DNA of 64,000 nt, taken from assembly GCA_964489835.1 (NCBI GenBank), contig CAZBBC010000005.1, positions 26,123-90,122 on the forward strand, in the 5' to 3' direction. Of this stretch, positions 5,312-62,363 are shown one piece after another. The notes beneath the pieces are model-generated. The model had not been told where the DNA came from. It ran no database searches and saw only the letters and a list, made by a program, of their open reading frames with translations. Each line of letters opens with the position of its first letter. The first letter of the stretch is position 1. The position numbers and the translations under genes were made by a program. Origin of the DNA: an uncultured Calditrichota bacterium (GTDB lineage Bacteria > Calditrichota > Calditrichia > JAJRVZ01).

Positions 5312-8300
5312 CTATTCTTTAGTTTTATGAAATAGTACACGGGCAGTAATTTCCTGCTTTTTTAGAGTGGTGCTTTCCCAGCTTACTTTCAAATCCTTAG
5401 ATCCTCCCATTTGAAAGTATTTTACTTTAATCGGATATTCTCCCGCTTTTAAGGCAATTTTTCCGGATTTTTCAATCGTGCCATGTCCGCCATCATTATC
5501 GATCAATTCCTCTTCATTCAGAAATAATTTGCTTCCATCATTCGATGCGAGGTAAAAAATATAGATATCATCCTCCGGAATAAGGATATATCCGTGATAA
5601 ATGTAACCAAATTCATTGACACCATTACGCGGTTTCATTTCAAACTGCGTCATGAGCCCGGACTTTACAGGCTTGGCTTTATCAAGATCGGCAACTGACC
5701 GATAGGAACCTTCAAAATAGTCGCACTGGAGTCCGACTTCAATGTTACCCGGATCTATCACCCTGGCATATTCTACCTTTTTAAAATTTTCCGTCACAAC
5801 AAAGCTTGTGGCCTGATTATTAGCAAAGGCGCGCATTTTAAGCGTTATCGGATTATTTAGCGGAAATGGTCTGGTATATAATTTCGATTGCAGTGTCGGT
5901 TCGGTCCCATCAACCGTATAACGAATACGTGCTCCTTTTGTATCACAAGCCAGAACGACTTTAGTTGTACCAACAAAGTATGTATTATTAGAGCTCACAT
6001 AAGGCGTAGGAACTGTTGAATTACCACCGAAACATCGAACAGACCCATCTTCCAAAGTAACAATAATCTTTCCATCACGACTTATCGCAAGTCCCCAGGG
6101 TACCGGCGAATATTCCAAAGGTTGCGACCAAAGCACTCTTCCATTACTGAGATCAAGAACAACGATATCTGTTTTTTCAGCGATAACGACAGCATTTTTA
6201 CAAGCTGCCAGGGCAACACTTCCCTCACAATTGTATTCCCAGTAGGGCTCGGAGGGAATATCGAGATTTGCCCAGATTGGAGCGAGATATCCTGTAAAAC
6301 TCTGTCCTCTAACACTATTATTTAAAACATTTTTATCAATAGGCGGATAGCATAAAACTTTTTTCTGGTTCACCCAAACGATATCCCGTTTGCCGACAGA
6401 TGTGTGCAACAATTTATTTTTAACCGTTTCGTCGTATACGGTATGTTTGGGGTGACTGTAAAATGGTTTACCGCTGGCGACGACATGATCTCCAACGAGA
6501 TAGAGTTCCCAACCGCGCGGGCTGAGTGATTCACAATTTTTAAGGAGTTCAGGATCGTTAAGGCACCGGCCATCGGTAACATCATAAACAGCTGGTGAGA
6601 GTGATGTACCACTTGCCATATAAAGTCTGTCTTTTTTAAGAAGTAAATGTCCCATGACGCTTGCCCCTGTGCGGGCCTCGGGATATAAATGGCCCGAGGT
6701 ATTGTTCTGCCATTTTATTTTCCCGGTTGCCGCGTCAAGTGCATAGACATGTGTTCCGTCATAATTAACGATTCCGGCAGCTGCATAGGCAATACCATCC
6801 TGAACCCGTACACCGCTGGCTACGGGCCAGGTCGAAATCAAAGATCCATAAACGGGAATCTTACGATCTATAGGAGCGGCCCGGAATCGCCAGATCATAT
6901 CACCTGTCCGTGCTTCCAGACAATATACATACCCATCCCCTGATCCAATCAGCAACCGGCCATTCCATACAGTTGGTGCCAGACGGACAGCGCCTCCGGT
7001 ATAGGCTTGCCAAACAAGCTGGCCGCTTATAACATCCACTGCCCGTACGACACCGTCAGAGCTTCCATAAAATACAAGGCCATCAACAGTAACCGGGGCT
7101 GTCAGTACCGTATAATGTTCATGTCCGAAAACATTTGTGGTCACAATATAGCCATCGTATTCCGGGAATCGCCAGAGCTCGTATCCCTTTTTAGAAATCA
7201 AGGCATTGCTCGTTACCCGGCATTGATTGTCCTTGCGAAAAGAGGGCCAATCGGCAGGAGTTTCGATCATGTTATTGATCATGGATAAATCGGCAGTGCC
7301 TTTTTCCAGCCGCTCTTCCTCTTTTGCCTTTATATTAAATCCAAAGTCACCGGCCGGACCCAGACAGTTAAAACCATAAATTGATAGTTGACAATCACAG
7401 ACAAATGGCCAAAAATAGAGCTGTCCATTGGCAATGGTGACACCGTCGAAACACGGCGGTCGCATTGGTGATATCCATTGAGGCATATAACTAGCAAGAT
7501 CGAAGCGAACCGTACCACCATTGGCTCTGAAAAATATAGCATCAGCGGTAGCACTGGGTCGGGTACAGGCCCTGCGGCCTGTGGGCAAATCTGCCAGGAT
7601 CTCACCGGTGAGAGGATCAAATTTTTTACTTACATTATTCCGCCAGGGACCACTGATACCAAATAAACCATCGTCTCGCAGAACAATTTGAAAATTATTG
7701 TAAGAATTTTTCCACAAAACACTACCGTCTTCAGTTGAAACGGCGAGTAGTTTGTCAATTTGTGGTCCTGCAAAATACAAGGCGTCGTCCGAACATAAAA
7801 TATAATTTCTGGTTCGCCAATTGGTTTCCCAGCTCTGCCGGGGAAGATATTCACCGAAGGCTTCAAATAGCTCCGGTGCGTTTTCTCTAGTTTTTCTCCA
7901 GATAATTTTACCGGATTTTGCGTTAAGGCAGGTCAAAAATGATCCGAATCGAAACAGGTAGATCCGACCGTTCTTCAAACCGGTACCGCGGCTGTCGATG
8001 GCTTCATCTTCCTGGTAATGCCACAGAACCTTGCCGGTTATGGGATTCATAGCCAGCATGTTCTTACCGAATCCCCATGAATGTTCAGATTGATTGAAGC
8101 CTTTTGATATGTCTGTCCAGGGCCACCCATGTTTTTGACGGCGCCATCGCATCACCGGATCCTTTTGCTCCTGATCTCCGATAAGCGCATAGAGAACATC
8201 GTCTTCCATTCCCATCCATTTCCAGAAAGTTCCTCCGGCAACTTCTAATGGGGGCTTGATCTCACCCTTTAGTTGACCCGTTTCTGTATCGATCAGCTTA

Positions 8301-9109
8301 CAGGATTTGTCATCACCCACAAATAGAGTTGTGGGTGTGGCGATCATCGTATTGCGGTGGAGCATTATGCCCGGAACCAAATCACGCTTCCATAGCATAG
8401 TACCATTATAACCATTAAAGGCCACTAAGGTATTTAGAAATGGTTCCTCCCGTTCATGGAAGGCGACATTTCCAAATCCCTTGAATACACGTCCTGCTGA
8501 TGCCACTGCTACCTGTGTCACCGGTCCATAATAAGGTTCAGCCAGGAATTGGGTCAGATAGGGTGCCAAGACAACCTTGTCTTTGGATTGTGTGTTGTTA
8601 TCCGGACCGTGATAAGGATGACTCCAGTCATCGACACCTTCAGGAAAAGGCTTAACCAGATCTTTGTTTTTAAATAGTGCTTTTCCCTCCGGCCGCAGAA
8701 TTCTGAGTACTTCATTTTCTGTAATGTGTAGCGTATCGCTTAAAGCGATAAGCACATCAGCAATGTTATCAGCAAGATTAATTGTTTGGGGGTCACTTTT
8801 CTCGACATAAATACGCGTCCCATAAAATCCGGCGGCATCAGCTGCCCGGCGTGCGGCCAATACCTGATCATCCTTTGACAAAGGGACATAAATTACCAAT
8901 TCACTTTTTTGGACCAGATCGAGGGAGAATTTGCAATTTTGATCACTCAACACAACGCAAATGCCCCGTGAAACACCTATCCTGTCAAGAATCTTATCAT
9001 CAACTGTACCTGTTTGTTGAAAATCACCTTTCTCTTCCTGACAGTTTAGACAAATCACCGCTAACAGAGTCACAGTCAGTATAAAAAATAGCCTCCGGAA
9101 GGATTTCAT
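5312..9109 (-). CDS. large lipoprotein with PQQ-like beta-propeller repeats, Fn3/chitobiase-like module and C-terminal PA14 domain
   Basis: 1265 aa from the Met 12 codons in (MKSFRRLFFILTVTLLAVICLNC lipobox); repeated G-x-(V/I)-(L/I)-W PQQ/BamB-type blades (GKVLWHYQ, SGKIIWRK, DGSVLWKN, SGQLVWQA, TGDMIWRF, TGKIKWQN, NGRVLWSQ); C-terminal GLQCDYFEGSY...YIFYLASNDGSKLFLN matches PA14. Confidence 0.75.
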   Translation of the reverse strand: MKSFRRLFFILTVTLLAVICLNCQEEKGDFQQTGTVDDKILDRIGVSRGICVVLSDQNCKFSLDLVQKSELVIYVPLSKDDQVLAARRAADAAGFYGTRIYVEKSDPQTINLADNIADVLIALSDTLHITENEVLRILRPEGKALFKNKDLVKPFPEGVDDWSHPYHGPDNNTQSKDKVVLAPYLTQFLAEPYYGPVTQVAVASAGRVFKGFGNVAFHEREEPFLNTLVAFNGYNGTMLWKRDLVPGIMLHRNTMIATPTTLFVGDDKSCKLIDTETGQLKGEIKPPLEVAGGTFWKWMGMEDDVLYALIGDQEQKDPVMRWRRQKHGWPWTDISKGFNQSEHSWGFGKNMLAMNPITGKVLWHYQEDEAIDSRGTGLKNGRIYLFRFGSFLTCLNAKSGKIIWRKTRENAPELFEAFGEYLPRQSWETNWRTRNYILCSDDALYFAGPQIDKLLAVSTEDGSVLWKNSYNNFQIVLRDDGLFGISGPWRNNVSKKFDPLTGEILADLPTGRRACTRPSATADAIFFRANGGTVRFDLASYMPQWISPMRPPCFDGVTIANGQLYFWPFVCDCQLSIYGFNCLGPAGDFGFNIKAKEEERLEKGTADLSMINNMIETPADWPSFRKDNQCRVTSNALISKKGYELWRFPEYDGYIVTTNVFGHEHYTVLTAPVTVDGLVFYGSSDGVVRAVDVISGQLVWQAYTGGAVRLAPTVWNGRLLIGSGDGYVYCLEARTGDMIWRFRAAPIDRKIPVYGSLISTWPVASGVRVQDGIAYAAAGIVNYDGTHVYALDAATGKIKWQNNTSGHLYPEARTGASVMGHLLLKKDRLYMASGTSLSPAVYDVTDGRCLNDPELLKNCESLSPRGWELYLVGDHVVASGKPFYSHPKHTVYDETVKNKLLHTSVGKRDIVWVNQKKVLCYPPIDKNVLNNSVRGQSFTGYLAPIWANLDIPSEPYWEYNCEGSVALAACKNAVVIAEKTDIVVLDLSNGRVLWSQPLEYSPVPWGLAISRDGKIIVTLEDGSVRCFGGNSTVPTPYVSSNNTYFVGTTKVVLACDTKGARIRYTVDGTEPTLQSKLYTRPFPLNNPITLKMRAFANNQATSFVVTENFKKVEYARVIDPGNIEVGLQCDYFEGSYRSVADLDKAKPVKSGLMTQFEMKPRNGVNEFGYIYHGYILIPEDDIYIFYLASNDGSKLFLNEEELIDNDGGHGTIEKSGKIALKAGEYPIKVKYFQMGGSKDLKVSWESTTLKKQEITARVLFHKTKE

Positions 9110-9243
9110 CGATTCCGGCTTGCCAATATCTTCTTTTGTGTCCATTTTTATCTTTCCTCCTGTTGAAATGATAAAAGTACTCGATCGGTAATTATATTTA
9201 GTAAGGTACCCAGTGGCTTAAATTGTTCACATTTTTTTTGAAC

Positions 9244-12660: not shown

Positions 12661-13677
12661 TCATTTTATCCAGTACTCTCTGAGTCTGTAAAATTCTTTA
12701 AACATTACCTCAGCGATCGTCTCACTCACTCCGATACCTTCAGGATCTCCATAATTGAAAACAATAAAACCACCTTCCGGTGTAGACCAGTTCTCAATCA
12801 ACTCTCTGGCTTCGGCCCGCACCGCTTTGCTGTCCTCTTTCGGCAATGTGGCCTGGATGTCAACGGTGGTCAGAAAACAAATTCTCCCGGCAAAAGATTC
12901 CCCGATCTCCTTTATGCCGTAAGTTTGTGGTTGTCCCATATTCAGTACATCCGCACCCATATCTATAAAATAGGGTACAAAATCGTTCACCCGCCCGCAA
13001 CTATGCAAAATAACATGCCATCCATGTCCATGAATAACATTGAACAGCTGTGTGTACCTGTCAAAAAAATATTCCATAAAGACTTCCGACGAAACGATAG
13101 TACCGTTTTGGGTACCCCAATCATCGGTAAGAAAAAGGCCATGCACCCGGTTGCCAAATTGTTTGGCCGCTTCGTTAATATGATCGATCTTATGATTCAG
13201 GATCATATCAAGTACCTGGTGTGTTTTTTTGGGCTCCAGATAAAAATCTTCAAGGGTTTGGCGAAAACCATGCAGCATGTACAGCCGTTCGAAAAGAGTA
13301 AAATGACTGGTCAGAACAACATATCGATTAGCAGCATCCCGGATTTCTTTTTCAATTCTTTGGAAATAGAAGGGATTTCGCGGGTCCGGCGGGATGTAGG
13401 TTGACAGTTTACTCCATTCCTCGAGGGGATGACCGACGACTTGACCCATGTTTTTGACCGCGGTTCTTTTCCATTGACAACCCCAGTCATCTCCTGCAGG
13501 ATTATCAAAAAACCACCCGTTTTCCTGACGGTCCATTTCCCAGCAATCACAGACATCATTAGGAAAATTTTTTATTACAGAGGATAGTTTTTTACCCCAG
13601 GAGCCTCCCAGGAAGAAGGGCAAACGTGGTGGTCTGTCGAATTCTATGGCCCTTCGAACAATCTCAGTGCTTTCCAT
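12661..13677 (-). CDS. uroporphyrinogen decarboxylase (URO-D) family protein, MtaA/CmuA-like
   Basis: 338 aa with URO-D fold signature stretches (FDRPPRLPFF, LHSCGRVNDFVPYFIDMGADVLN); probably not a haem-pathway enzyme given the context. Confidence 0.65.
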   Translation of the reverse strand: MESTEIVRRAIEFDRPPRLPFFLGGSWGKKLSSVIKNFPNDVCDCWEMDRQENGWFFDNPAGDDWGCQWKRTAVKNMGQVVGHPLEEWSKLSTYIPPDPRNPFYFQRIEKEIRDAANRYVVLTSHFTLFERLYMLHGFRQTLEDFYLEPKKTHQVLDMILNHKIDHINEAAKQFGNRVHGLFLTDDWGTQNGTIVSSEVFMEYFFDRYTQLFNVIHGHGWHVILHSCGRVNDFVPYFIDMGADVLNMGQPQTYGIKEIGESFAGRICFLTTVDIQATLPKEDSKAVRAEARELIENWSTPEGGFIVFNYGDPEGIGVSETIAEVMFKEFYRLREYWIK

Positions 13678-13906
13678 TGAATTTTTTTTAAGGGTAACTT
13701 TTTCCGGACTAAAATTAATTACTCATCCGATATTTTTGCCTGTCGAATCTAAATAATTCACTAACCTGAATTATTCACCACGAAGATCATCCTTCGAGGT
13801 TTATGCTTTTATAGCCAAAAACTTTGTTGTTTTAACAAAATTTTTACAAACTGAATATATTCATTTAACGCAGAGACCGCAGAGATTTTTTTATAATACA
13901 TTTTTT

Positions 13907-14008
13907 AATTCGTGAAAATTCGTGTCAGTCTGCGCCTGATCCGGCTTCGACGGATAATTCGTGGACTTCTTTTTTGGATTGCAGCAATAGGCTGCGGCAT
14001 GAATAGAC
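13907..14008 (-). repeat. gene-end structured repeat, family A copy 1 (about 97% identical to 21437-21536)
   Basis: aattcgtgtcagtctgcgcctgatccggcttcgacggataattcgtggacttcttttttggattgcagcaataggctgcggcatgaatag; 3 mismatches in 91 nt against the reverse complement of 21437-21527; lies 88 nt 3' of the sialidase-like gene in the same relative orientation as the other copies. Confidence 0.8.
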
Positions 14009-14095
14009 CAGGCTAATTACCCAACCGTAATAAATCTAAAATAATATTTAATACAAACCAATCATTAATATAGGTCATTCGATTTATTGATGAGT

Positions 14096-15274
14096 TCAAG
14101 GAGCTGAAACCGGTGTCGTATCGGATGATCTATTTTTTTCGCGAAAGTTTTTTATTCGGTGAAACGTCAGATAATTTGCATCATGGGCATTATGTGCCCC
14201 GCCGAGGCCGTCCTCAAATGCTGTCCGTGAAACAGCAACAATATCATTACCTTCGAATAGCCAATCGACATATTGAAATCCTGATTTTTCGAAATCCTGC
14301 GAGCGTAATACAACAAAACGCACCGACCATTCCAACAAATCCTTTGACGAAATCAGTGCCAGGGTATTGCGGGTGCGCTCCGCGTTCCATTTACCAACAT
14401 CATCGGGATGAATCCAATTAGTGAGCGACCAGTAAAGATTGCTTTTGGTATCATGGTGAATACTAAATTTTTTGCATCCTCCCGGGAAATCGATAAAATC
14501 AGTTTTATCATCAAAAGATATGTATTTTCCATTGTTGGAGATCCGGACCAATGCTGCTTTACCACCTTTTGTCGGTTCATGCACACGCAGTATATTGACA
14601 AGTTTATCGTCCGGAGTGATGACAATATTACCCTCCAACCAGCCGCTGTAGGGTTCCCAGTCGCCCCACTGTAAATGATTGCTGATGGTCCAGTTCTCCG
14701 CAGAAAGGAGGTTGGCATCAGCGGGGGCACTCATCACAAACGGCTGGAAGCCGCTACCCCATCGTCCGGTAACTTTTTCCCAGGCCCGCCAGATGCGGTC
14801 ATTATGAATAACTACCGGTACCGGGGCACAATGGTATTGACCATCCCTCCGCAAAATACCCGATTGATTCGAAGGTTCCGTCCAGGTTAAACCACCATCG
14901 TCAGATCGACGAATGATCACATAACCATCTGCCTTACTGGTACCAATAAGATACAAATTGTCGGCATGAACAAATAATGAGGACCACCACTGACCATCAA
15001 TATCGGTCATCACTTCCCATGTTTCCCCTTTGTCACTTGATCTATGGATTCGTGTTCTGTTATTCGATGAACCGGGGCCAAAGAAATCATGAGAGGCGAT
15101 AAAGTCTCCATTCGGAAGAATGGCAATGCTGGGAGAGCCGATATATTGCATTGAAGAAGCGGGAGAATGATCGATAACGATTCCCGGAACTTTTGAATGA
15201 TCAACCGTGGATTTAGTCAAACATCCCACAACGCTTAAGGCAACAGTGAACATGATAAATTTAAATATATTCAT
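14096..15274 (-). CDS. BNR/Asp-box repeat glycoside hydrolase (sialidase-like), lipoprotein
   Basis: Signal MNIFKFIMFTVALSVVGC; two Asp-boxes SDKGETW and SDDGGLTW. Confidence 0.65.
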   Translation of the reverse strand: MNIFKFIMFTVALSVVGCLTKSTVDHSKVPGIVIDHSPASSMQYIGSPSIAILPNGDFIASHDFFGPGSSNNRTRIHRSSDKGETWEVMTDIDGQWWSSLFVHADNLYLIGTSKADGYVIIRRSDDGGLTWTEPSNQSGILRRDGQYHCAPVPVVIHNDRIWRAWEKVTGRWGSGFQPFVMSAPADANLLSAENWTISNHLQWGDWEPYSGWLEGNIVITPDDKLVNILRVHEPTKGGKAALVRISNNGKYISFDDKTDFIDFPGGCKKFSIHHDTKSNLYWSLTNWIHPDDVGKWNAERTRNTLALISSKDLLEWSVRFVVLRSQDFEKSGFQYVDWLFEGNDIVAVSRTAFEDGLGGAHNAHDANYLTFHRIKNFREKNRSSDTTPVSAP

Positions 15275-15329
15275 AAGTGTAACTCCAGGGATAAAAGGTT
15301 GTTTTGAAGATTTTAAAAAAACCGCACCA

Positions 15330-16205
15330 TTATTGGAGATGGGAAAAATCCTTCTTATATCGATTTAAGATATCCTCTTTAGAACCTTTGAACAGATAAA
15401 TCTTGCCCCGTATCGTTTTATTCTCTCCTCGTTTTAATGGACCCACACGAACAGATAAATGCATACATTTCCAGGGGTTGTGACCCTGAACCGAAAGATA
15501 CGATTCCCAGGCAATACCTGTTACCCATTTATTATCTTCGGACTCCCGAATGATTAGGCCGGCATGGGCATTTCTTTGGGAGGTGGGCCATTTAGCATTG
15601 AAGACGAATTGGCTGGCCTCACTCTCTTTATGCCAGGCCATCACGGATGATCGGTATTTATAATTAAAATGAATTTCCCGCGGATATTCTTCTCCTTTTA
15701 TTAATTCAAGACTACTTTTACCAAGAAAATAAGTGTTTGTATGGCTCTTGTCAAAAAACACAGGATTTGCTATGGCATCGGTAATCTTTCTTGAATCTGC
15801 GCCCGGATTGAAACAGGGAATGATTGCCGCGATTTCCGGCCAATCATGATCTGAAATATTGGTGATATCCAATACCATATCTGCGCCATCTGCGGTTGCC
15901 TCCAATTTCAATTTCAGCCACCCCGAATCCATTTGCGCTAACACTCCTGATGAATCAACCTGCCATTTCCAATTGGATGTTCCTGGTGTATGCTCTCCAC
16001 TTTTTACGGCATCAAATAAGTGCCACTCATAAAACCATAAATAGGCAAAACCTTCAGAATCGTGGCGGGATTCAACTTTTACACCGCGGTCCCACAGGCG
16101 CAACCTGATCAAATTTTCCGTTTTTTCATTTTCATTCAGGCAGGCGGATAGAAAGAAACATTGTATTACAATGATAGTCGATATAAGAATAATTTTATAC
16201 TTCAT
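15330..16205 (-). CDS. hypothetical lipoprotein
   Basis: 291 aa; lipobox FFLSAC; no family recognised. Confidence 0.5.
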   Translation of the reverse strand: MKYKIILISTIIVIQCFFLSACLNENEKTENLIRLRLWDRGVKVESRHDSEGFAYLWFYEWHLFDAVKSGEHTPGTSNWKWQVDSSGVLAQMDSGWLKLKLEATADGADMVLDITNISDHDWPEIAAIIPCFNPGADSRKITDAIANPVFFDKSHTNTYFLGKSSLELIKGEEYPREIHFNYKYRSSVMAWHKESEASQFVFNAKWPTSQRNAHAGLIIRESEDNKWVTGIAWESYLSVQGHNPWKCMHLSVRVGPLKRGENKTIRGKIYLFKGSKEDILNRYKKDFSHLQ

Positions 16206-16310
16206 CTCACCGCCTTTGTTTTGGTAAGGTAGTCAAAAATAACCACAGATTATGCCGAGTCTTTTATGAAACTTCTGCTTGTATCAAATATTTTTTTGTC
16301 GAGTAATCGC

Positions 16311-17570
16311 TCAATAAAGTTGCGGAACCTTGAGTAATTCCCCACCGCGTAGCGCAGACTCGTGGGCAACAATACCGGGAACGGTATAAGCCAATGCTTC
16401 GGTAATATCGATAGCAGGCCGACGATTATGAATGAGTGCATCAATAAATTCGTGAGTCAGGAATGTATGCGAGCCCTGATGACCGGAGTTATGACGTAAT
16501 GGTTCAGGCAATAAGTCCGTGTCCCACCAATCCGGTTGTTCGTAGGGTTCCAATTCTGGCAAGTAGCGTACAAAACCGGCGTCATCTTTTTCTGTGCGGT
16601 TACGATCGGGTCTGACAATAACGGGTCCAAGACCGTTGGGATGGGCTGCATAAAAACTCATATCACTACCGATCCATTGCGCTCTTTCACAACCACGATG
16701 TGCGCCCTTCCACCAGATATTAACCCGAAAAGCATGTCCGCGGTCAGTTCTGAACATCGCTGATTCATTCCAGAAAGGATTATTGTTATAGGCGTTTTTT
16801 TTGCAGATATCACTCTCATCTCCCCAACCGTGACAGACGACCTCTGTCAATTTTTCTCCGGTAACGCCTGTTAAATGCGCAATACAGTGGGTCGGATACA
16901 ACATTGGCGGAAAACCATGGCGCCAGGTCGGTTTACCGTTTTCAAAGAAAAGAACCTCCAGGCCCGAATGCTGATATTCTGACTCACAATAATAAATCTC
17001 ACCGAATTTTTTTTCCTGATAAAATTGGCGTGCAGAAATCGTATGTTGCTGATAGAAGCTTGTTTCTGCCATCATGTATGTCAAGCCACTTTCCTTTACA
17101 GCATCGAGAAGTCTCTGTGCTTCTTCCACCCCACTGCCGGCACAAGCCGGAACGGCGCAAATCGCATGTTTGCCATGTTTCAATACCTCAATCACATGCT
17201 TTGCATGATTCGGACCCTCTGTAAAGACGGCAACCGCATCAATGTTTTTATCTTTTACCAATTCTTCCAGACTGTTATAAGACTTGCTGCATTGATAAGT
17301 TTTCATTAGGTGATCACGACGAGCAGGTCTTAAATCACTCACGGCCTCAACAATACAATTCGGATGTTCATGCCAATAAAAATGCGATCCAAAATTACCG
17401 CCGACCACACCGATGTGTATTTTCCTGTCGACAGTATCCGCGGCAAGTAATCGGTTTCCGGATAATGATAAACCGGTAACGGCGATGCTTCCTATCTTAA
17501 GAAAATTTCTTCGGGTCAGGTTAGAACCACCGACCACAGTCCTGGCGGTGATTATAGATTTCTTTTTCAT
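16311..17570 (-). CDS. Gfo/Idh/MocA family oxidoreductase with TAT signal (GH109-like architecture)
   Basis: TAT motif TRRNFLKIGSIAVTG; Rossmann HIGVVGGNFGSHF; 419 aa. Confidence 0.8.
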   Translation of the reverse strand: MKKKSIITARTVVGGSNLTRRNFLKIGSIAVTGLSLSGNRLLAADTVDRKIHIGVVGGNFGSHFYWHEHPNCIVEAVSDLRPARRDHLMKTYQCSKSYNSLEELVKDKNIDAVAVFTEGPNHAKHVIEVLKHGKHAICAVPACAGSGVEEAQRLLDAVKESGLTYMMAETSFYQQHTISARQFYQEKKFGEIYYCESEYQHSGLEVLFFENGKPTWRHGFPPMLYPTHCIAHLTGVTGEKLTEVVCHGWGDESDICKKNAYNNNPFWNESAMFRTDRGHAFRVNIWWKGAHRGCERAQWIGSDMSFYAAHPNGLGPVIVRPDRNRTEKDDAGFVRYLPELEPYEQPDWWDTDLLPEPLRHNSGHQGSHTFLTHEFIDALIHNRRPAIDITEALAYTVPGIVAHESALRGGELLKVPQLY

Positions 17571-17607
17571 TTCTCAGTCCTTTGCTTTATACAGCAGTGT
17601 TAAAAGT

Positions 17608-17746
17608 AACCACGAAGCACACGAAGATATTATTATTGATTTTATAGAAAAAATGCAATACTAAAATTTGAACAGGAATTCCTTTATAGATTTACAATAA
17701 ATATTTTTTTTATGCTTTCGTGCTCTTCGTGCGCCTCGTGGTGATT
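17608..17746. repeat. heptamer inverted-repeat element (CACGAAG arms, 90-bp AT-rich core)
   Basis: left aaccacgaagcacacgaag; right ctttcgtgctcttcgtgcgcctcgtggtgatt (RC carries cacgagg/cacgaag/cacgaaa). Confidence 0.7.
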
Positions 17747-17809
17747 AAATTTGTCATAGAACTGTCCTAAATGAAGAATTACAGAGTGTTGAGCCTTGCA
17801 TTATGTCGT

Positions 17810-18760
17810 TCAATAGTTACCTTCGTTTCGCCATATATTAAGCATCAATTCATATCGTGACAGACGCATGCCCGTGTAAATACAATTACTGGTAGAGAAA
17901 ATGTATCCCCCTCCCGGCATTCCCTGACTGAGTGAATAGCGCGCCGATTCGATGACTTCCTGGTCGGTTCCGGTATCCAGTGCGCCGCAATTAACATTAC
18001 CGATCAGACAGACCCGGTTTCCATACAAACGTTTCACTTCAGCCATATCAATTCCGGCCTGGGGATCTAGGGAGTGCAATGCATGCGGCCCGGCTTCAAC
18101 TAACTGGTCGATGATGGGCATGATGTTTCCGTCGGTATGTTTTATGGTATAAAAACCCATATCACGGTAGCCCTGGATTAGTTGGGTAAGGTAGGGTGTT
18201 GTAAATTCGGCAAACTGATCCGGGCTCAGAAAAGGTCCGTTATTAAAGCAGTAATCCATACATAAGGCGAAACCATCTAATCCCCCATGTTTTTGATAAA
18301 GTTCCGCCTGCCTCAGAGCTGTTTCCACCATGGCCCTGGCTTCTGCTTTAACTTTATCGGGCTCTTCTGCCAGACGGCAAGAAAATGACATCATATCTTT
18401 CCCTTCCGGTATGCCGATCGTCGCATCTCCATGCCGCATTAAAAAATATTGGTCACCGGTTCGCTCACGAATCAGATCAATCTGCCGGATCGTCTCTTCT
18501 ACAGAATCAGGATTTAGATGCAGAAAAATGGCGCTGTGTTCAAATTTTCGGGCAGTCGCGATATAGAGATCTGCCATATCAACGCGGTGCAGTTCCCGTT
18601 CTTTTTCTTCCATTTGAAGCCATTGATCATACAACCGGTGGTTGGGATGTACTTTCCCGAAAGCTTCCATGGTTAAAAAGAAAACTAATTCAAAATGTGG
18701 GACTCTTCCCTTAAGTGGTTGAAGTTCCAGCGCCGCAATGAAACGTTCTCTTGGATTCAT
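17810..18760 (-). CDS. URO-D family protein (second paralog)
   Basis: 316 aa; URO-D-like stretches (GDATIGIPEG, YTIKHTDGNIMPIIDQLVEAG). Confidence 0.65.
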   Translation of the reverse strand: MNPRERFIAALELQPLKGRVPHFELVFFLTMEAFGKVHPNHRLYDQWLQMEEKERELHRVDMADLYIATARKFEHSAIFLHLNPDSVEETIRQIDLIRERTGDQYFLMRHGDATIGIPEGKDMMSFSCRLAEEPDKVKAEARAMVETALRQAELYQKHGGLDGFALCMDYCFNNGPFLSPDQFAEFTTPYLTQLIQGYRDMGFYTIKHTDGNIMPIIDQLVEAGPHALHSLDPQAGIDMAEVKRLYGNRVCLIGNVNCGALDTGTDQEVIESARYSLSQGMPGGGYIFSTSNCIYTGMRLSRYELMLNIWRNEGNY

Positions 18761-18944
18761 CTTATTCTTCTCTTAGTAATTCGAAATCATTGTTTTTTAA
18801 TATCATAGCACAGCCCAAGGCTGCAAATAAAGAACAAATAATCCGTGGATAAAAGTTTTTGACTGTAAAACAATAATGGTACAATATAATTTAAAAATAG
18901 CAGTTTTAAAATAGTATCATATGTTACGGTATCTGTTTATTTTT

Positions 18945-19000
18945 TGACAGGATAATCCCGACTGGGTCGGGATCCAAAAAACGGACAGGATTTACAGGAT
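18945..19000 (+). repeat. GACAGGAT-flanked hairpin motif, copy 1 (copy 2 at 51016-51074)
   Basis: ttttttgacaggataatcccgactgggtcgggatccaaaaaacggacaggat; 8-bp stem atcccgac/gtcgggat; about 88% identical to 51016-51074. Confidence 0.7.
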
Positions 19001-19347
19001 GATAAAAACAATGAATCATCAGTTATCAAAAAATATCAAGTTTCACCCGTTTATTGCTATTTATATCATGAATGTCTGGTTAAAAAAATCGATTCAATAG
19101 ATGTAACCGGATACTCCTGATGTTATATATTAATCTTTGTAGTGCATAACAGTCTCTGGAATGAGCTACTCGGTTGATTGAATTTGAATTTAATTGAAAT
19201 CGAAGGGTTGATTAACTAATTTGAAGAAAATAAATTAGTGCATCAGTGATTTTTTTAATAGATACTCACATAAATTTAAGCGAGTAAAATACCAGTGGAA
19301 AAATTGGTGCTTAAGAATAATCGAACATCAAAAAAATTGGAGTTTTA

Positions 19348-21435
19348 ATGGCCATCTTAAGCAAAGAAAAACAGCTTAAGAAAGAGCTGTCGTTATTCAA
19401 CATTTATACCATTGCCACTGGAGCCACCATTGCCTCTGGTTTCTTTCTGTTACCGGGTTTGGCCTATGCCCAGGCTGGTCCAGCCATGGTGCTTAGCTAT
19501 CTGATAGCGGCAATCCCGGTTATTCCGGCCTTGTTCAGCACATCTGAACTTTCGACAGCAATGCCGCGTGCCGGCGGCATTTATTTTTTCCTGGACCGCA
19601 GTATGGGGCCGCTAATGGGCACCATTGGTGGTATAGGAACCTGGCTGGCTCTGATACTGAAAACAGCTTTTGCATTGGTGGGTATTGGTGCCTATATGCG
19701 TTTGTTCTTACCTCAAATTCCAATGTTACCACTGGCTGCTTTTTTCGCCATTCTTTTTGGTATCGTCAATCTTTTAGGTGTAAAAAAAGCCGGTATCTTT
19801 CAGGGTATATTTGTTATAGGCCTGTTGCTGCTTCTGGGCCTATTTTCAGGAATCGGTTTAACATATTTGAATTTCCAGAATTTCAATGGTTTTTTTGACA
19901 AGGGATTCAATTCAATATTTGCTACCGCCGGTCTTGTTTATGTCAGTTATATCGGGCTTTCTAAGATCGCCAGTGTTTCTGAAGAAGTTAAAAATCCGGA
20001 TAAAACGATACCCTTGGCAATGTTTCTGGCACTGGGCACGGCGATTTTGGTATATACTATTGGTACTTTGGTTATGATCGAAGTGATACCGGCCGAAAAA
20101 TTAACCAACGATCTGACACCGGTAGCCTCCGCGGCCGAAATTATGATAGGAGAGTGGGGCGCGATCTTGATGACCACCGCTGCAATCTTGGCTTTTTTAT
20201 CAGTAGCAAATGCAGGAATTCTCAGTTGTTCACGCTATCCGCTGGCGATGAGCCGTGACCATCTAATGCCCCGTTTTTTGCGCTCTTTCAGTAAACAAAA
20301 AACGCCAAAATACGCTATCCTGATCACCGTAATATTTATTTTACTGATGCTCTTACTCCTTGATCCCGCAAAGATTGCTAAACTGGCCGGTGCCTTCCAG
20401 TTACTTCTTTTTGCACTGCTTTCACTTGCTGTTATTGTCATGAGGGAAAGCCGATTAGATTCTTATGATCCCGGATTCCGTTCCCCCTTATATCCATGGA
20501 TGCAAATTTTTGGGATGATTGCTCCCTGTTGGCTGATCATTGAAATGGGCTGGTTTCCGTCTATTTTTGCACTGGCATTGGTTGGATTGGGCACATTTTG
20601 GTATTTTTATTATGGAAAGAAAAGGGTCGTCAGGGACGGTGCCATTTACCATATTTTTGCCCGTCTTGGTCAGCGACAGTTCGAAGGTCTTGATATTGAA
20701 TTGAGAAGCATTTTAAAAGAAAAGGGTTTGCGTGATAAGGATCCGTTTGATGCTGTCGTTGCCAGTTCTGTATTTATTGATATTAATGAAAAAACTTCTT
20801 TTGAAGAAATCGTAAAAAAGGCCTCCTCAAGTTTATCAAAAAAATTTCACTGCGATGCCAAACTATTAGAAAGATCATTTATGGAGGGTACCCAAGTAGG
20901 GGCAACTCCGGTTTCACACGGTACCGCACTCCCGCACCTTCGTATTCAGGGAATGCCGCATTCTGAAATGATCATGGTTCGCACACAGATCGGCATCACG
21001 GTTGATTTTGATACAAATCTTTTAGGGGAGCAGGATGCGGATAATCCCATATATGCATTATTCTTTTTAGCCAGCCCGGAAGATAATCCGGGGCAGCATT
21101 TACGTATCCTGGCCCAGATTGCCAGCCATGTGGATAATGAAAATTTTATTAATCAATGGCTTGATGCCAATAATGAACAGGAATTAAAAGAGCTGCTTCT
21201 GCGGGAGGACCGGTATATCTCTTTGCAGCTGACAGCTGGTACAACAACCGAAACACTGATTAACTGTGAGATTCGAAACATTGAGCTGCCTGTGGGAAGT
21301 CTGATTGCGATCATTCACAGAAGGGGAGAAATGATAATTCCGAGAGGACAAACGGTTCTGCATGAGCATGACCGTTTAACCATTATCGGTTATCCCAAGG
21401 GTATTCAGGAATTGTACGATAAGTATTTAACCTGA
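19348..21435 (+). CDS. APC-superfamily amino-acid permease fused to PTS EIIA(Ntr/Fru-type) and TrkA_C regulatory domains
   Basis: 695 aa; roughly 12 TM permease domain (aa 1-430); EIIA-2 motif SHGTALPHLRIQG with conserved His; C-terminal TrkA_C-like GSLIAIIHRRGEMIIPRGQTVLHEHDRLTIIG. Confidence 0.8.
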   Translation: MAILSKEKQLKKELSLFNIYTIATGATIASGFFLLPGLAYAQAGPAMVLSYLIAAIPVIPALFSTSELSTAMPRAGGIYFFLDRSMGPLMGTIGGIGTWLALILKTAFALVGIGAYMRLFLPQIPMLPLAAFFAILFGIVNLLGVKKAGIFQGIFVIGLLLLLGLFSGIGLTYLNFQNFNGFFDKGFNSIFATAGLVYVSYIGLSKIASVSEEVKNPDKTIPLAMFLALGTAILVYTIGTLVMIEVIPAEKLTNDLTPVASAAEIMIGEWGAILMTTAAILAFLSVANAGILSCSRYPLAMSRDHLMPRFLRSFSKQKTPKYAILITVIFILLMLLLLDPAKIAKLAGAFQLLLFALLSLAVIVMRESRLDSYDPGFRSPLYPWMQIFGMIAPCWLIIEMGWFPSIFALALVGLGTFWYFYYGKKRVVRDGAIYHIFARLGQRQFEGLDIELRSILKEKGLRDKDPFDAVVASSVFIDINEKTSFEEIVKKASSSLSKKFHCDAKLLERSFMEGTQVGATPVSHGTALPHLRIQGMPHSEMIMVRTQIGITVDFDTNLLGEQDADNPIYALFFLASPEDNPGQHLRILAQIASHVDNENFINQWLDANNEQELKELLLREDRYISLQLTAGTTTETLINCEIRNIELPVGSLIAIIHRRGEMIIPRGQTVLHEHDRLTIIGYPKGIQELYDKYLT

Positions 21436-21699: not shown

Positions 21700-22446
21700 C
21701 TATTTCCCCGGTATATTTCTATGCAGTTTCACCGGAACGACCAGTTTTTTACGCATTCGAATATTGAGCATCTCCACGCCAACCGAAAAAGCCATCGCAA
21801 AATATATATAGCCTTTTGGAACATGCACATCAAAACCTTCGACCATTAGAGTAACACCGACCAAAAGCAAAAATGAAAGTGCAAGAATCTTGATCGTTGG
21901 GTGTGTTTCAACAAATTCTCCTAATGATTTTGCCGCGGATAGCATGACCACAACCGCCAGAACGATAGCGACCGCCATTATAGAAACGTGTTCTACCAGA
22001 CCGATCGCTGTGATCACTGAATCCAGAGAAAAAACAATATCCAGAACGGTAATCTGTATCAATACCATTCCCACACTGGTTGCAGCAACTTTGGGGTGCC
22101 TATTTTCTTTACCTTCTAAACTATGGTGAATCTCATGGGTCGCTTTTGCCAGAAGAAAGAGACCGCCTCCGATCAGAATGATATCACGTCCTGAAATTGC
22201 CTGGCTAAATACCGAGAACCATGGTTTGGTTAACCCCATCACCCAGGAAATGGAAAACAACAGGGCCAGGCGGGCAATCATCGCAAGGCTGAGCCCAATT
22301 TTTCTCGCAGACGCCTGTTGATTTCGTGGGAGCCGGCCCACAAGAATTGAGATAAATATAATATTATCGATGCCCAAAACAATCTCTAAGGCAATTAATG
22401 TACCTAAAGCAATCCATCCCTCGGGGCTTGCTATCCATTCAAACAT
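21700..22446 (-). CDS. TerC family integral membrane protein
   Basis: EIVLGIDNIIFISIL and FSLDSVITAIGL TerC motifs. Confidence 0.85.
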   Translation of the reverse strand: MFEWIASPEGWIALGTLIALEIVLGIDNIIFISILVGRLPRNQQASARKIGLSLAMIARLALLFSISWVMGLTKPWFSVFSQAISGRDIILIGGGLFLLAKATHEIHHSLEGKENRHPKVAATSVGMVLIQITVLDIVFSLDSVITAIGLVEHVSIMAVAIVLAVVVMLSAAKSLGEFVETHPTIKILALSFLLLVGVTLMVEGFDVHVPKGYIYFAMAFSVGVEMLNIRMRKKLVVPVKLHRNIPGK

Positions 22447-27639: not shown

Positions 27640-30381
27640 TTGGCCATGAATCAGCAAAAAATATTAATCACTTTTTTATTGTGTTTATCGCTGGTTTATA
27701 TCCTACCGGCTCAGAGCTGGCATCCTGAAATCACTCACCGACCGCGACTGGTTTTGCTGGAATCGGAAATTGACACGATTCGTGCGCGACTTTCCGAAGG
27801 TGTTTATAATCAACTTTGGAGCAATGATTATACCAGCAGAAAAGGAGCTGCCGTTAATGGTATTTATCAAAAAGCAGGAGAAGAGCAGGATATAAGTCCC
27901 AATACGGAAGAAACGCCGCGAGCCTATGCCGATGTCCGGGCCTGGATCGCCAAACATGCTGCCTTTGTTTATACTATCAATAAAAGGGCAAACGGTATTG
28001 ATAGTCTTAATGCATTTACCGGAGAATCCGATCCCCATCCGCGGGACTGGTATAAAGATCATGCCCTGGAATATTTACAAACCATTGACCCGGGGGTGTT
28101 AGGACCCACAAATCCTTTTGACTTTGTAGACAAGGCTATCTTTGTGGACAACTGGCAATGGCGGGTCAAAGAATTGATCAATTACTGTCAGGCCTATGAC
28201 ATGCTATTGGGTGTCGGGGTGGCGGTCCCGGATACGGTTAAAACTCTTCTGGATCTATTTGCTCATAATCTGTTCCAGAAATATGCATTGGTCCAATCGA
28301 TCCCACAGCAGGTTGGTTTCGACTTCTATCTTATTAGTAAGAATAATCATCGTTTAATGCTCGCGGCTGCCCTGGGCCAGGCGGCGGTTACTTTAAACGA
28401 TTCTGAAAACGCCGGTGCTTGGATTCAACTGGCGATGAGTGTGATTCAGTACGTTCTATTTGAAGACGGTAATGAAGCTTATCAAAGTCTCCGGCAAGTG
28501 GATGCGGATGGCGGCTATGCGGAGGGTCCCTACTATTTAAAATATGTTTTAAAGCATCTGATCCCGTTCTTTATCGCCATGCGAAATTTTAACGGTGACT
28601 GGACAGAGGAATATACCTATGAAAATATTCCGCGCTCTATACAATCGCCCTGGTTTGATCCGGAATACCAGAAAATTTACGACTGGATAACCAAGATCCG
28701 TATGCCTGAGGGACGGTTACCTGCGTTGGAGGATTCATACCAGGATCATTACCTGCCTGATCTGGCGGTCTTTGGGGGATATTATTCCTGGCCTTATCAG
28801 TCATTCGATGATCAGCTTACTAAGGAGGCTTTATTAAACCAGCAACTAACCGATCCTTTTGATTTGAGGATCGAATATGTGGTCGCCGGAAATGCCGGAG
28901 AAACAGAGGTGCCACCGGGGTGGGAAAATGTTCAGGTTTTGCCGGAAGCCGGCAGTGCTGTCTTCCGGAGTGACTGGGGAACAGAGGCCCTATATCTCCA
29001 TTTATACGGTCAACACGATTCGGCCCGGGAATCAGGATCGACCCATGATCATGCCGATGTGACCAGTTTTATTCTGGGGTATATGGGACAGGTTTTGGCA
29101 CTGGATGCAGGATATATAAAATGGGATCAACATTATCGTGTCAATAAACCAGAAAATCATAATTTGATCCTGGTTGACGGCTATGGTCCCAGGCCACCCT
29201 CTGGTCCTATTGTGCGGGTCAATGGTTTTACTCTATCTATCAAAAATGCGCCCAGTCCCACCGATGGTTCCTTTACCACAACCTATATCGCCGACAATTT
29301 TTCATATGTGGATGTACAAACCGAATACGGTCAGCGGTATGAACTGGTCGATTCTCTGGACCAACAGGAAGCCTGGGAATATGTTGAGAGTGACACCACT
29401 GAATTTTCTATGAATAGAGGGGTTCTGTTTGTTGATAATCGTTATTTTGTTATCTGTGATGATCTGGATAATTTAGATAGTGATTTGAAAAATTATCAGT
29501 TTTTATTACATGGTAATGGTGGCGGTACAAGCGGCGGTACCTATGAATCAATCCTTAATGGTGCGGTTTGGACGAGGGACAATGTCAAATTGACGACCCA
29601 GATTACCGCCTTAAACGGAGGGGTAAACTTTAGTGATTCTTTATATACCCATGGAGACGGGTTCAATACCCCTAAGACGCACACCTGCCTCCGGGCCACA
29701 AAGGAGGCGGTGGATACAAAATATTTAAGTGTCTTATTTCCGGACGTAACTGACCGTACGGCGGATTTCTTTGAACAGAGTAACGATACATCGGCCGGTT
29801 TCCTGGTCAACCGTGATCCATTGGCATCTGAAGGACGTTATGACTTTATTTTTACTCAAAAAGACCAGGATTCTTTATATATTCCTGAACAAACGTTTGG
29901 GTCGATGACGATAAAATCTATCCATACCGATGCCGAGCTATTGGTCATGAGTTTTGATAAACAGGATCCGGATAATCCTGAATCAATGAAGATCTTTGGT
30001 AAGTCAATTTCATATTTGACCTATGATGACGGTTATTTTATTTTTAAACCGGATAGCAGTATTACCTCTAATTTTAGTATTATTACAGGAACGCCTGCCA
30101 ATGTCAGTCGTGTACCCACGAAATATACATTGGCCCAGAATCATCCCAATCCATTTAATCCGAAAACAGTTATCAGTTATCAGTTGGCAGGTGGCAGTGA
30201 CGTTGAATTGAGTATTTATAATCTGCTTGGGCAAAAGGTTGCAACACTGGTTTCGGAAAGACGGAAAGCCGGATATCATCAAGTGGAATGGGATGCATCG
30301 TTATATGCGAGCGGGATTTATTATTATAAAATTGTGGCTGGAGAATTTCGATCGGTTAAAAAAATGATACTGCTCAAATAA
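27640..30381 (+). CDS. secreted heparinase II/III-like polysaccharide lyase-family protein with T9SS C-terminal sorting domain
   Basis: 913 aa; signal peptide; GSTHDHADVTSFILGYMGQVLALDAGY resembles the Hepar_II_III HxHxDxxSF motif; C-terminal HPNPFNPKTVISYQL...IYNLLGQKV...YYYKIV is a type-A T9SS CTD. Confidence 0.55.
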   Translation: MAMNQQKILITFLLCLSLVYILPAQSWHPEITHRPRLVLLESEIDTIRARLSEGVYNQLWSNDYTSRKGAAVNGIYQKAGEEQDISPNTEETPRAYADVRAWIAKHAAFVYTINKRANGIDSLNAFTGESDPHPRDWYKDHALEYLQTIDPGVLGPTNPFDFVDKAIFVDNWQWRVKELINYCQAYDMLLGVGVAVPDTVKTLLDLFAHNLFQKYALVQSIPQQVGFDFYLISKNNHRLMLAAALGQAAVTLNDSENAGAWIQLAMSVIQYVLFEDGNEAYQSLRQVDADGGYAEGPYYLKYVLKHLIPFFIAMRNFNGDWTEEYTYENIPRSIQSPWFDPEYQKIYDWITKIRMPEGRLPALEDSYQDHYLPDLAVFGGYYSWPYQSFDDQLTKEALLNQQLTDPFDLRIEYVVAGNAGETEVPPGWENVQVLPEAGSAVFRSDWGTEALYLHLYGQHDSARESGSTHDHADVTSFILGYMGQVLALDAGYIKWDQHYRVNKPENHNLILVDGYGPRPPSGPIVRVNGFTLSIKNAPSPTDGSFTTTYIADNFSYVDVQTEYGQRYELVDSLDQQEAWEYVESDTTEFSMNRGVLFVDNRYFVICDDLDNLDSDLKNYQFLLHGNGGGTSGGTYESILNGAVWTRDNVKLTTQITALNGGVNFSDSLYTHGDGFNTPKTHTCLRATKEAVDTKYLSVLFPDVTDRTADFFEQSNDTSAGFLVNRDPLASEGRYDFIFTQKDQDSLYIPEQTFGSMTIKSIHTDAELLVMSFDKQDPDNPESMKIFGKSISYLTYDDGYFIFKPDSSITSNFSIITGTPANVSRVPTKYTLAQNHPNPFNPKTVISYQLAGGSDVELSIYNLLGQKVATLVSERRKAGYHQVEWDASLYASGIYYYKIVAGEFRSVKKMILLK

Positions 30382-34595: not shown

Positions 34596-34938
34596 CTATC
34601 TGAATGATTTCCCGTACAAATACCCCCTCGCATTCTTCCGGGCAGGGTTCCAGTCTAAATTTAAACAAACAATATTCCGGGCATTTCTCATCGCCCATCA
34701 AATTCCTGGAATAAACCGGGCCATTATAGAGATCTCTGAATTCTCCACTGAGCACAGACATCGTCGATTTACAGTAAAGATGATTAAAGAGAAAAAGACC
34801 ACCATCGAGGTCCTGAAAATGGGCCTGGTAACCAACCAGTTTTATAGCCGGGTCGCTTAAAAACTTATCGCGCGACAGCCAGGAATGATTACAATTGGGA
34901 CATTTTTTAAAGTGCTTTTTTCCGGAATCTGATTTCAT
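34558..34938 (-). CDS. Cys-rich zinc-ribbon-like small protein, last gene of the cbb3 cluster
   Basis: 126 aa; CPNC...CPEYC...CPEEC; ATGA overlap with fixH. Confidence 0.5.
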   Translation of the reverse strand: MKSDSGKKHFKKCPNCNHSWLSRDKFLSDPAIKLVGYQAHFQDLDGGLFLFNHLYCKSTMSVLSGEFRDLYNGPVYSRNLMGDEKCPEYCLFKFRLEPCPEECEGVFVREIIQIVKDWKKDPPANR

Positions 34939-35390
34939 CTAATTACCACCGTACCTTCTTCATAATAATCGGTTTGATTTAGTTGCCAGAATATTTTTAA
35001 CTTCCATAAGCCCGGGGACAAATGTTTTGTACTAACGGTGTGGCTACCGTCCGATAGCAGTTTTATAGCGATCAGCCGGTCCATCCGCGCATCGGAGGGG
35101 CGGAATAATAAAACATTTCCACTGATTAATCCATATTCCAGATTGGCCGGAAAATTTATCGTAAGTAATTTATCATCACTGTCATATTTCCAGATAACCG
35201 GATCAGATAATGACTTTGATCGTTGGATGCGATCAATTTGATTTTGGTACATTATTTCCTGCGTATAATAATCCTTCGTCACCAGATCATTGTTCTGATA
35301 TTGTGAAAAAATGACAAATGCCACCAATAGCAGTATGAATAAAAGGTAAACAGAAGCAATAGCCAGCGGCCAGAGACTGGATTTTCTCAT
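34935..35390 (-). CDS. fixH: FixH family protein
   Basis: 151 aa; N-terminal TM then FixH-domain; position after ccoG. Confidence 0.8.
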   Translation of the reverse strand: MRKSSLWPLAIASVYLLFILLLVAFVIFSQYQNNDLVTKDYYTQEIMYQNQIDRIQRSKSLSDPVIWKYDSDDKLLTINFPANLEYGLISGNVLLFRPSDARMDRLIAIKLLSDGSHTVSTKHLSPGLWKLKIFWQLNQTDYYEEGTVVIR

Positions 35391-36808: not shown

Positions 36809-36831
36809 ACATCATCCATGAAAAAAAATAA

Positions 36832-37692: not shown

Positions 37693-37873
37693 GATTTAAA
37701 TCTCCGTTGCTATTGGATGAATCAAGCGGCAATTGTTTCATTTTGTTTAAATACTTTTTATCAACTTTAATACTCCAATATATCACACCCAGGAATATTA
37801 GAAAGAATAAGATCAGGGAGATTATACCATAGACTTCAATACCTGACATTGATTTAAATATATCTTTAAACAT
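37685..37873 (-). CDS. ccoQ: cbb3 oxidase small subunit CcoQ/FixQ-like
   Basis: 62 aa; single TM YGIISLILFFLIFLGVIYW; between ccoNO and ccoP. Confidence 0.6.
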   Translation of the reverse strand: MFKDIFKSMSGIEVYGIISLILFFLIFLGVIYWSIKVDKKYLNKMKQLPLDSSNSNGDLNHG

Positions 37874-37910
37874 TTTTCTCCCTAATCAGATAAATAATTT
37901 TATAAAAAAT

Positions 37911-40126: not shown

Positions 40127-40129
40127 AAA

Positions 40130-42765: not shown

Positions 42766-42834
42766 CGGTTTTGATCAATTTATAAATTTTTCTTGCATTT
42801 TTGGAGTCGCATACCGTGTTGATCTTAATATCAA

Positions 42835-62349: not shown

Positions 62350-62363
62350 TTCAGGGATTTTAA

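Follow-up and report, generated by a model that had tools for sequence, protein, structure and literature searches.

The DNA analysed here, referred to below as the window, is a 64,000-nucleotide (nt) stretch of a contig from an uncultured Calditrichota bacterium (GenBank CAZBBC010000005.1). One gene in it, the subject of this work, encodes a single polypeptide of 695 amino acids (aa) that combines an APC-superfamily permease with a C-terminal tail made of a PtsN-like EIIA domain of the phosphotransferase system (PTS) and a TrkA_C (RCK_C) domain. The open reading frame (ORF) starts with ATG and is uninterrupted; the start codon is supported by the N-terminus MAILxKSKxLKKEL, which is conserved in an alignment of 82 homologues. 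All three types of domain scored above the Pfam gathering cut-off of 27 bits: AA_permease_2 (PF13520) with 157.7 bits, PTS_EIIA_2 (PF00359) with 60.1 bits, and TrkA_C (PF02080) with 37.5 bits. The second permease family, PF00324, scored 155.7 bits. An initial annotation, made from the sequence before any database search, had placed these domains on one 695-aa chain and had read the tail as a regulator of the permease. The profile matches of the C-terminal region to PTS_EIIA_2 and TrkA_C bear out the assignment, and we consider the general idea of a regulatory C-terminal tail to be correct.

The hydrophobic segments of the protein all lie N-terminal of residue 415, and the tail is therefore soluble. 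The best solved relative of the permease domain in a Protein Data Bank (PDB) sequence search was GkApcT (6f34/5oqt; E = 9e-35, 26% identity), with a HMMER alignment spanning GkApcT residues 19–457. Two structure models were built with AlphaFold2, one of the full-length protein from 82 homologues (mean pLDDT 81) and one of the separate tail, residues 425–695 (pLDDT 75). In Foldseek searches, the membrane part matched 5oqt/6f34 with a TM-score of 0.85 over ~435 columns and BasC, AdiC, and ApcT with scores of 0.79–0.87. Together with the position of the hydrophobic segments, the GkApcT matches agree with the 12 transmembrane (TM) segments counted in the initial annotation, and the predicted folds, which correspond to GkApcT, PtsN, and the RCK_C domains of TrkA and CpaA, likewise agree with its domain assignment.

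When the C-terminal 255 residues were compared with the PDB, four PtsN structures ranked first (2a0j, 4gqx, 3urr, and 1a6j). The same four structures were on top of the Foldseek results for the tail model (TMt 0.71–0.80), with EIIA-Mtl (1a3a) at 0.70; the model also matched the EIIA-fold cytoplasmic domains of the SLC4 proteins AE2, band 3, BTR1, and NDCBE, with E values of 2e-6 to 1e-4. Among the EIIA-type NCBIfam models, TIGR01419 (PtsN) was the best, but its score of 36 bits is far below the cut-off of 138.7, and the domain is therefore PtsN-like rather than a PtsN orthologue. His530, which lies in the peptide GTALPHLRIQG, aligns to His73 of Escherichia coli PtsN and to the matching His of the three other PtsN structures. 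This position is a His in 122 of 122 close relatives, in all 83 genome-locus sequences, and in 110 of 136 distant cluster representatives (those without a residue at this column were not counted). The initial annotation was right that the protein retains the His in a PtsN-like context. The family has its own motif at this site, A-[LIVMF]-P-H-x-R. The second His of the domain, His584, is kept in 136 of 149 cluster representatives (91%), and L585, R586, L588, F600, and W604 are nearly invariant. The His conservation, strong but not universal, makes phosphorylation of His530 plausible.

In the last domain, Foldseek found the folds of Thermotoga TrkA-C (3jxo, TMt 0.75) and of the RCK_C domain of Staphylococcus aureus CpaA with bound cyclic di-AMP (c-di-AMP; 5f29/4ys2, TMt 0.80), with KtrA/TrkA also among the closest RCK_C structures. 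BLASTP aligned the domain to the RCK_C region (residues 428–479, E = 6e-7) of E. coli CvrA/YcgO, a protein composed of Na_H_Exchanger, TrkA_C, and CorC_HlyC domains. Four residues, R658, P665, D675, and G681, are nearly invariant. A partner domain of the TrkA_N (RCK_N) type was not found in the protein by Pfam, although some relatives have one (P0130 and the transporter next to the fusion at locus L068, see below).

The best-conserved part of the tail is neither of the two domains but the juxtamembrane linker at aa 429–466. R429, G431, A432, Y434, H435, F437, G441, L452, R453, and D465 are invariant in 82 sequences, and G431, A432, E451, L452, G460, and D465 are at least 90% conserved in a diverse set. 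This high conservation contrasts with the low confidence of both structure models at residues 444–464 (pLDDT <50). The linker may serve as a helix that couples tail and permease or as a motif that binds a partner, and it would be the segment likeliest to transmit the state of the tail to the permease.

The 120 best matches among 5.8 billion proteins are ~695 aa long and 58–95% identical to the protein, and 119 of them carry the same four Pfam hits, the lone exception being truncated. They are named "amino acid permease" by NCBI and "amino acid transporter/...IIA component (Ntr-type)" by JGI. A genome scan with the family alignment as a query, one genome per species, revealed relatives in at least 577 genomes. 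In the best 80 loci of this set, residues 1–693, or nearly all of them, were covered at 50–69% identity. These loci come from Calditrichia, Ignavibacteria/Melioribacteraceae, Bacteroidota, Gemmatimonadota/Longimicrobiales, Planctomycetota/Phycisphaerae, Latescibacterota, SAR324, Thermodesulfobacteriota, Dadabacteria, Verrucomicrobia, Hyphomicrobiales, and others; the nearest homologues belong to Calditrichia (63–69% identity). The full-length architecture is thus present in at least 80 species genomes of about ten or more phyla. The tail alone, searched against 1.84 billion representatives clustered at 50% identity, had 1058 matches at E ≤ 1e-3, 330 at E ≤ 1e-10, and 116 at E ≤ 1e-30. The initial annotation had called the fusion rare; with this many species and with 116–330 clusters at 50% identity, it is widespread and common in environmental bacteria. 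Short tail matches, considered as candidates for stand-alone EIIA + TrkA_C proteins, proved to be gene fragments starting in TM12 or in the linker. No paper on an APC–EIIA–TrkA_C fusion was found in the searchable literature.

Related proteins carry the tail in other arrangements. One of them, P0152, consists of Na_H_Exchanger, two EIIA_2 domains, and TrkA_C; in P0130, the permease is followed by TrkA_N, TrkA_C, EIIA_2, and a second TrkA_C; P0160 is a permease with EIIA_2, TrkA_C, and two Usp domains; and P0269 is a permease with EIIA_2 and two Usp domains and has no Pfam TrkA_C hit. The tails of P0152, P0130, and P0160 are homologous to the tail studied here (E values of 1e-49 to 1e-63). EIIA-tailed transporters also occur side by side: at two Phycisphaeraceae loci, L063 and L064, two Na_H_Exchanger + EIIA_2 genes lie directly 5′ of the permease fusion, and at L068, from another Planctomycetota metagenome-assembled genome (MAG), a Na_H_Exchanger + TrkA_N + EIIA_2 gene has the same position. 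These cation/proton antiporter (CPA) + EIIA_2 proteins next to the permease fusion lack TrkA_C. As judged from domain content, the tail behaves as a modular, portable regulator of transporters, and among the relatives found it is always attached to a transporter.

The coordinates of the fusion gene and its parts, of its surroundings, and of other features are collected in Table 1. The gene looks monocistronic. In its upstream region, a sigma-54 consensus was sought and not seen, there was no sigma-70 promoter or terminator signal above chance, and a search for a riboswitch returned no Rfam family. Across the entire 64-kb window, neither a tRNA gene nor an Rfam family passing the gathering threshold was detected. 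Upstream, two paralogues of the URO-D family flank three genes, which code for a weak BNR-like protein, a protein without a Pfam family, and a GFO_IDH_MocA oxidoreductase whose N-terminus is twin-arginine-like. These genes may together form a cluster for the utilisation of sugars or glycans.

Elsewhere in the window, a cbb3-type cytochrome oxidase cluster includes a single 708-aa protein in which COX1 (CcoN) and FixO (CcoO) are joined. Two proteins, one heparinase II/III-like and the other an M1 peptidase, end in a Por_Secre_tail, the sorting domain of type IX secretion. These sorting domains, like the nearest homologues of the fusion protein, fit an origin in the FCB group. A 1277-aa protein combines PQQ-type beta-propeller repeats with a chitobiase/hexosaminidase C-terminal domain and PA14, and genes of alpha-glucan metabolism occupy the end of the window.

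Table 1. Features of the fusion gene, of its surroundings, and of the remaining window. Positions are those of the window unless a homologous locus is named.
Feature	Position	Strand	Basis
Fusion gene, 695-aa APC permease–EIIA (PtsN-like)–TrkA_C, stop codon included	19348-21435	+	ORF list, Pfam
GGAG ribosome-binding-site-like motif, 5 nt before ATG	19339-19342	+	sequence reading
Permease domain, aa 14–436, 12-TM LeuT/APC fold, SLC7/CAT-like	19387-20655	+	AA_permease_2 5.8e-46, AA_permease 2.2e-45
Juxtamembrane linker, aa 429–466, R-x-GAIYHIFARLG...GLD.ELR.ILKEKGLR..DPF	20632-20745	+	conservation
PTS EIIA type-2 domain, aa 477–618, PtsN-like	20776-21201	+	PF00359
GTALPHLRIQG peptide	20920-20952	+	translation
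His530 codon, equivalent of PtsN phospho-acceptor His73	20935-20937	+	translation, PtsN alignment
His584 codon in QHLRILA, equivalent of PtsN His120	21097-21099	+	translation, PtsN alignment
TrkA_C / RCK_C domain, aa 637–691	21256-21420	+	PF02080
Intergenic region of 587 bp 5′ of the fusion gene, divergent from URO-D-family gene	18761-19347		ORF map
TerC gene, downstream of and convergent with the fusion gene	21700-22446		ORF map
URO-D / GFO_IDH_MocA region	12661-18760		
URO-D-family paralogue	12661-13677	-	
Weak BNR-like protein	14096-15274	-	
Protein without Pfam family	15330-16205	-	
GFO_IDH_MocA oxidoreductase	16311-17570	-	
URO-D-family paralogue	17810-18760	-	
1277-aa beta-propeller protein	5312-9145	-	
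Por_Secre_tail protein	27640-30381	+	
Por_Secre_tail protein	51552-53477	+	
cbb3-type cytochrome oxidase cluster	34935-43839	-	
FixH	34935-35390	-	
FixG	35387-36808	-	
FixP	36832-37692	-	
COX1 (CcoN) + FixO (CcoO), single protein	38000-40126	-	
P-type ATPase with ATPase-cat_bd domain	40315-42765	-	
DsbD_2	43129-43839	-	
Alpha-glucan metabolism genes	59797-63992		
DUF3417 + glycogen-phosphorylase-family protein	59797-62349	+	
Amylo-alpha-1,6-glucosidase GDE_C protein	62364-63992	-	
L063 cluster of EIIA-tailed transporters (L064 likewise)	L063: 4721-8234 and 10001-12112		
L068 cluster of EIIA-tailed transporters	L068: 910-3180 and 3280-5388		

A circuit with similar components acts in E. coli, where unphosphorylated PtsN binds the cytoplasmic C-terminal region of the K+/H+ antiporter YcgO and inhibits it, and where the phosphorylation state of PtsN His73 decides both binding and inhibition (PMC11808508; PMC13445646; PMC13104625). 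It has been proposed that the RCK domain of YcgO activates the membrane domain and that PtsN bound to CorC blocks this activation (PMC11808508; see also PMC13445646). Unphosphorylated PtsN also binds TrkA. In this circuit, PtsN is a separate protein and acts in trans. By analogy, we suggest, with a probability of roughly 0.55, that the protein is an APC/SLC7 permease whose PtsN-like EIIA + RCK_C tail represents a version in cis of the E. coli PtsN–YcgO/TrkA circuit. In such a protein, an HPr/NPr-type carrier would set the phosphorylation state of His530; phosphorylation would alter the packing between EIIA on one side and RCK_C and the linker on the other; and the changed packing of the tail would open or block the permease. 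Binding of a ligand to RCK_C would be a second input. The architecture, the folds, the conservation of residues, and the broad distribution are shown by the present analysis; that His530 is phosphorylated, in which direction control runs, which ligand binds RCK_C, and what the transporter carries are matters of inference.

Several observations weigh against this analogy. First, the contact of YcgO for PtsN has been placed in its CorC domain rather than in RCK (PMC11808508), and the fusion protein has no CorC, the proposed docking site. Second, the site departs from that of a canonical EIIA. In PtsN and EIIA-Mtl structures, roles have been assigned to His120 (PtsN numbering), the second active-site His, and to Arg57. 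The position of Arg57 is Gly514 in the fusion protein and is not Arg across the family. The canonical EIIA-2 His signature, of PROSITE type, is [DENQ]-x6-[LIVMF]-[GA]-x2-[LIVM]-A-[LIVM]-P-H-[GAC]; it matches E. coli PtsN but not the fusion protein, and only 1 of 271 family sequences. Third, ~19% of the distant representatives have lost His530 (Tyr in 9, Asn in 4, Asp in 4, Gln in 3, Glu in 2, and others), which suggests that some family members work without a phospho-His. Last, no experiment on any family member was found in the searchable literature.

The gene neighbourhoods likewise do not speak for a PTS link. To find PTS partners, E. coli HPr, NPr, enzyme I (EI), and PtsN and Bacillus subtilis HPr and HprK were compared by phmmer with every ORF of 60 aa or more from the window and from the 80 homologous loci (up to 22 kb each, within 10 kb of the homologue). 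With these queries, no EI, HPr/NPr, or HprK was found in the 64-kb window or in the 80 loci; the search retrieved only EIIA domains on transporters. Nor did all-versus-all BLASTP clustering of 4704 neighbouring ORFs reveal conserved synteny, as only the gene itself and antisense shadow ORFs were shared between loci. A phosphoryl donor is nevertheless plausible in the nearest named lineage, since the genome paper of Caldithrix abyssi describes PTS genes in two clusters, Cabys_3887-3890 and Cabys_0064-0067 (PMC5317091), and a MAG labelled C. abyssi carries a homologue with 63% identity (L004). The family also occurs in lineages with documented PTS-Ntr. The initial annotation had found the fusion notable because FCB-group bacteria mostly lack sugar PTS systems, an argument that carries little weight given the PTS genes reported in C. 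abyssi, itself a member of Calditrichota.

The same facts bear on an alternative that we regard as somewhat unlikely, namely, that the domain with the EIIA fold has a regulatory or scaffolding role that does not depend on phosphorylation, as in SLC4, and that its conserved His residues serve folding or the binding of a ligand or a partner. Such a domain would account for the absent Arg57, the unmatched signature, the lack of PTS genes near any of the 80 homologues or in the window, and the better retention of the HLRILA motif (91%) than of His530. The matches of the tail model to AE2, band 3, BTR1, and NDCBE also point in this direction. However, PtsN structures outrank every other fold in the Foldseek search of the tail, and the A-L-P-H-x-R context is invariant over 83 loci from ~ten phyla at an overall identity of 50–69%, a pattern expected of a catalytic or acceptor residue.

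A different doubt, fairly unlikely to be justified in our view, concerns the membrane domain, which may carry another solute or use another coupling (for example, a derivative of an amino acid that is large or anionic, an exchange mode, or coupling to Na+) independently of how the tail works. NCBIfam equivalogs and subfamilies all scored far below their cut-offs (TIGR00909, 225 versus 557 bits; BcaP, 198 versus 690; all others lower), and no substrate-defined model (BcaP, AroP, GABA permease, and others) came near its cut-off. The alignment to GkApcT, with functional roles as assigned in PMC5803215, shows that the proton-coupling residues Glu115, Lys191, and Asp237 are replaced by Ala101, Leu159, and Ser205 and that the specificity/gate residue Met321 is replaced by Gly290, while the pocket position held by Ala119 in GkApcT has an invariant Lys105. 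The tail, moreover, is found elsewhere on cation/proton antiporters. On the other hand, the backbone-binding positions of TM1 and TM6 are kept (S30/G31 and I202 correspond to Thr43/Gly44 and Ile234 of GkApcT), Y236 and R296 align to Tyr268 and Arg327, and the EEVKNP motif typical of amino-acid APC transporters is present. A KimA-like K+ importer was considered for the membrane domain and rejected; KimA, which has the APC fold, is absent from the 49 PDB sequence hits, among which amino-acid transporters dominate.

Since the key coupling residues differ and the NCBIfam models are far below their cut-offs, neither the substrate nor the coupling ion can be transferred from GkApcT, and both may be unlike those of the known CAT homologues. 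The membrane domain belongs with the amino-acid transporters by type, but the name "amino-acid permease" denotes a family rather than a demonstrated function. Beneath the ligand site, there is an acidic-to-basic shift.

We consider it improbable that the permease is controlled chiefly through RCK_C and a small ligand of this domain (for example, c-di-AMP, a nucleotide, or a cation), with RCK_C mediating dimer formation and EIIA acting as a spacer or adaptor. The TrkA_C score above the Pfam cut-off, the near-invariance of D675, G681, R658, and P665, and the presence of c-di-AMP-bound CpaA (5f29, 4ys2) and KtrA/TrkA among the closest structures would fit such a mechanism. Yet P0269 and the neighbouring CPA + EIIA_2 proteins have no Pfam TrkA_C, suggesting that the EIIA domain can act without RCK_C, and the protein studied here lacks the TrkA_N partner domain. 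Finally, we give practically no credence to a misassembly or frameshift that joined a permease gene to a ptsN-like gene, since the frame is uninterrupted, the identical protein is on record in NCBI, a JGI homologue is 95% identical, and 119 of the 120 top homologues and 80 independent genome loci share the architecture.

In a more far-reaching reading, held with less than even confidence, the output of the regulatory PTS in Calditrichota, Ignavibacteriota, Gemmatimonadota, Planctomycetota, and other phyla would be direct gating of a permease, and amino-acid uptake would be tied to the phosphoenolpyruvate, nitrogen, or K+ status sensed by the PTS. The protein would then be the first example of a transporter to which a switch of the EIIA-Ntr type is covalently joined, and a tractable model for the control of PtsN targets. 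As a one-polypeptide system, it also lends itself to structural and transport studies. Even in E. coli, there is still debate about the way in which PtsN acts on its targets and about the purpose of the regulatory PTS (PMC13104625; PMC11808508). A PtsN-like domain tethered beside RCK_C offers independent comparative evidence that the two form a functional pair, and shows this pair not just on K+ carriers but also on amino-acid-type permeases and beyond the Proteobacteria. The main value of the family lies in this comparative evidence and in its use as a tractable model. In the same far-reaching reading, the fusion would be a natural "Rosetta stone," in which PtsN-type EIIA and RCK_C are an old, portable regulatory pair that provides phosphorylation-dependent gating of an amino-acid-type permease in many phyla. 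The find is no surprise to specialists, since annotation pipelines already label the domains. The NCBI name "amino acid permease" gives no hint of the regulatory tail, and the nearest characterised relatives do not allow the substrate to be deduced.

Each part of the protein has a known counterpart. GkApcT is the closest solved relative of the membrane domain and shares with it the TM1/TM6 ligand-backbone positions, Tyr268, and Arg327; it differs in having no cytoplasmic regulatory tail and in five residues, Glu115, Lys191, Asp237, Met321, and Ala119, which are Ala, Leu, Ser, Gly, and Lys in the fusion protein. KtrA/TrkA and S. aureus CpaA have an RCK_C domain of the same fold, which likewise forms part of the cytoplasmic tail of an ion transporter, whereas the fusion protein has a single RCK_C without RCK_N/TrkA_N on a carrier that is not a cation transporter. 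The sister architectures have other carriers or added sensor domains, and none has been studied experimentally in the literature searched. The SLC4 proteins band 3/AE1, AE2, NDCBE, and BTR1 resemble the fusion in that an EIIA-fold cytoplasmic domain serves for regulation or anchoring of a secondary transporter. They differ in being eukaryotic, in the N-terminal position of this domain, in the transporter fold, in having no phospho-His chemistry, and in an identity of just 11–15%.

The closest parallel is the E. coli PtsN–YcgO/TrkA circuit, where, too, a PtsN-type EIIA acts with a secondary transporter bearing RCK_C; the EIIA domain studied here is structurally closest to PtsN, and its TrkA_C domain aligns to the RCK_C of CvrA. 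In contrast to that circuit, EIIA is part of the transporter chain itself, joined to the membrane domain on one side and to RCK_C on the other, and the carrier is an APC amino-acid-type permease rather than a CPA antiporter. In the simplest reading of this comparison, the fusion protein would be a version in cis of this control of RCK-bearing transporters by PtsN, built onto an APC permease, in which phosphorylation of His530, a ligand of RCK_C, or both would change the way the tail engages the permease.

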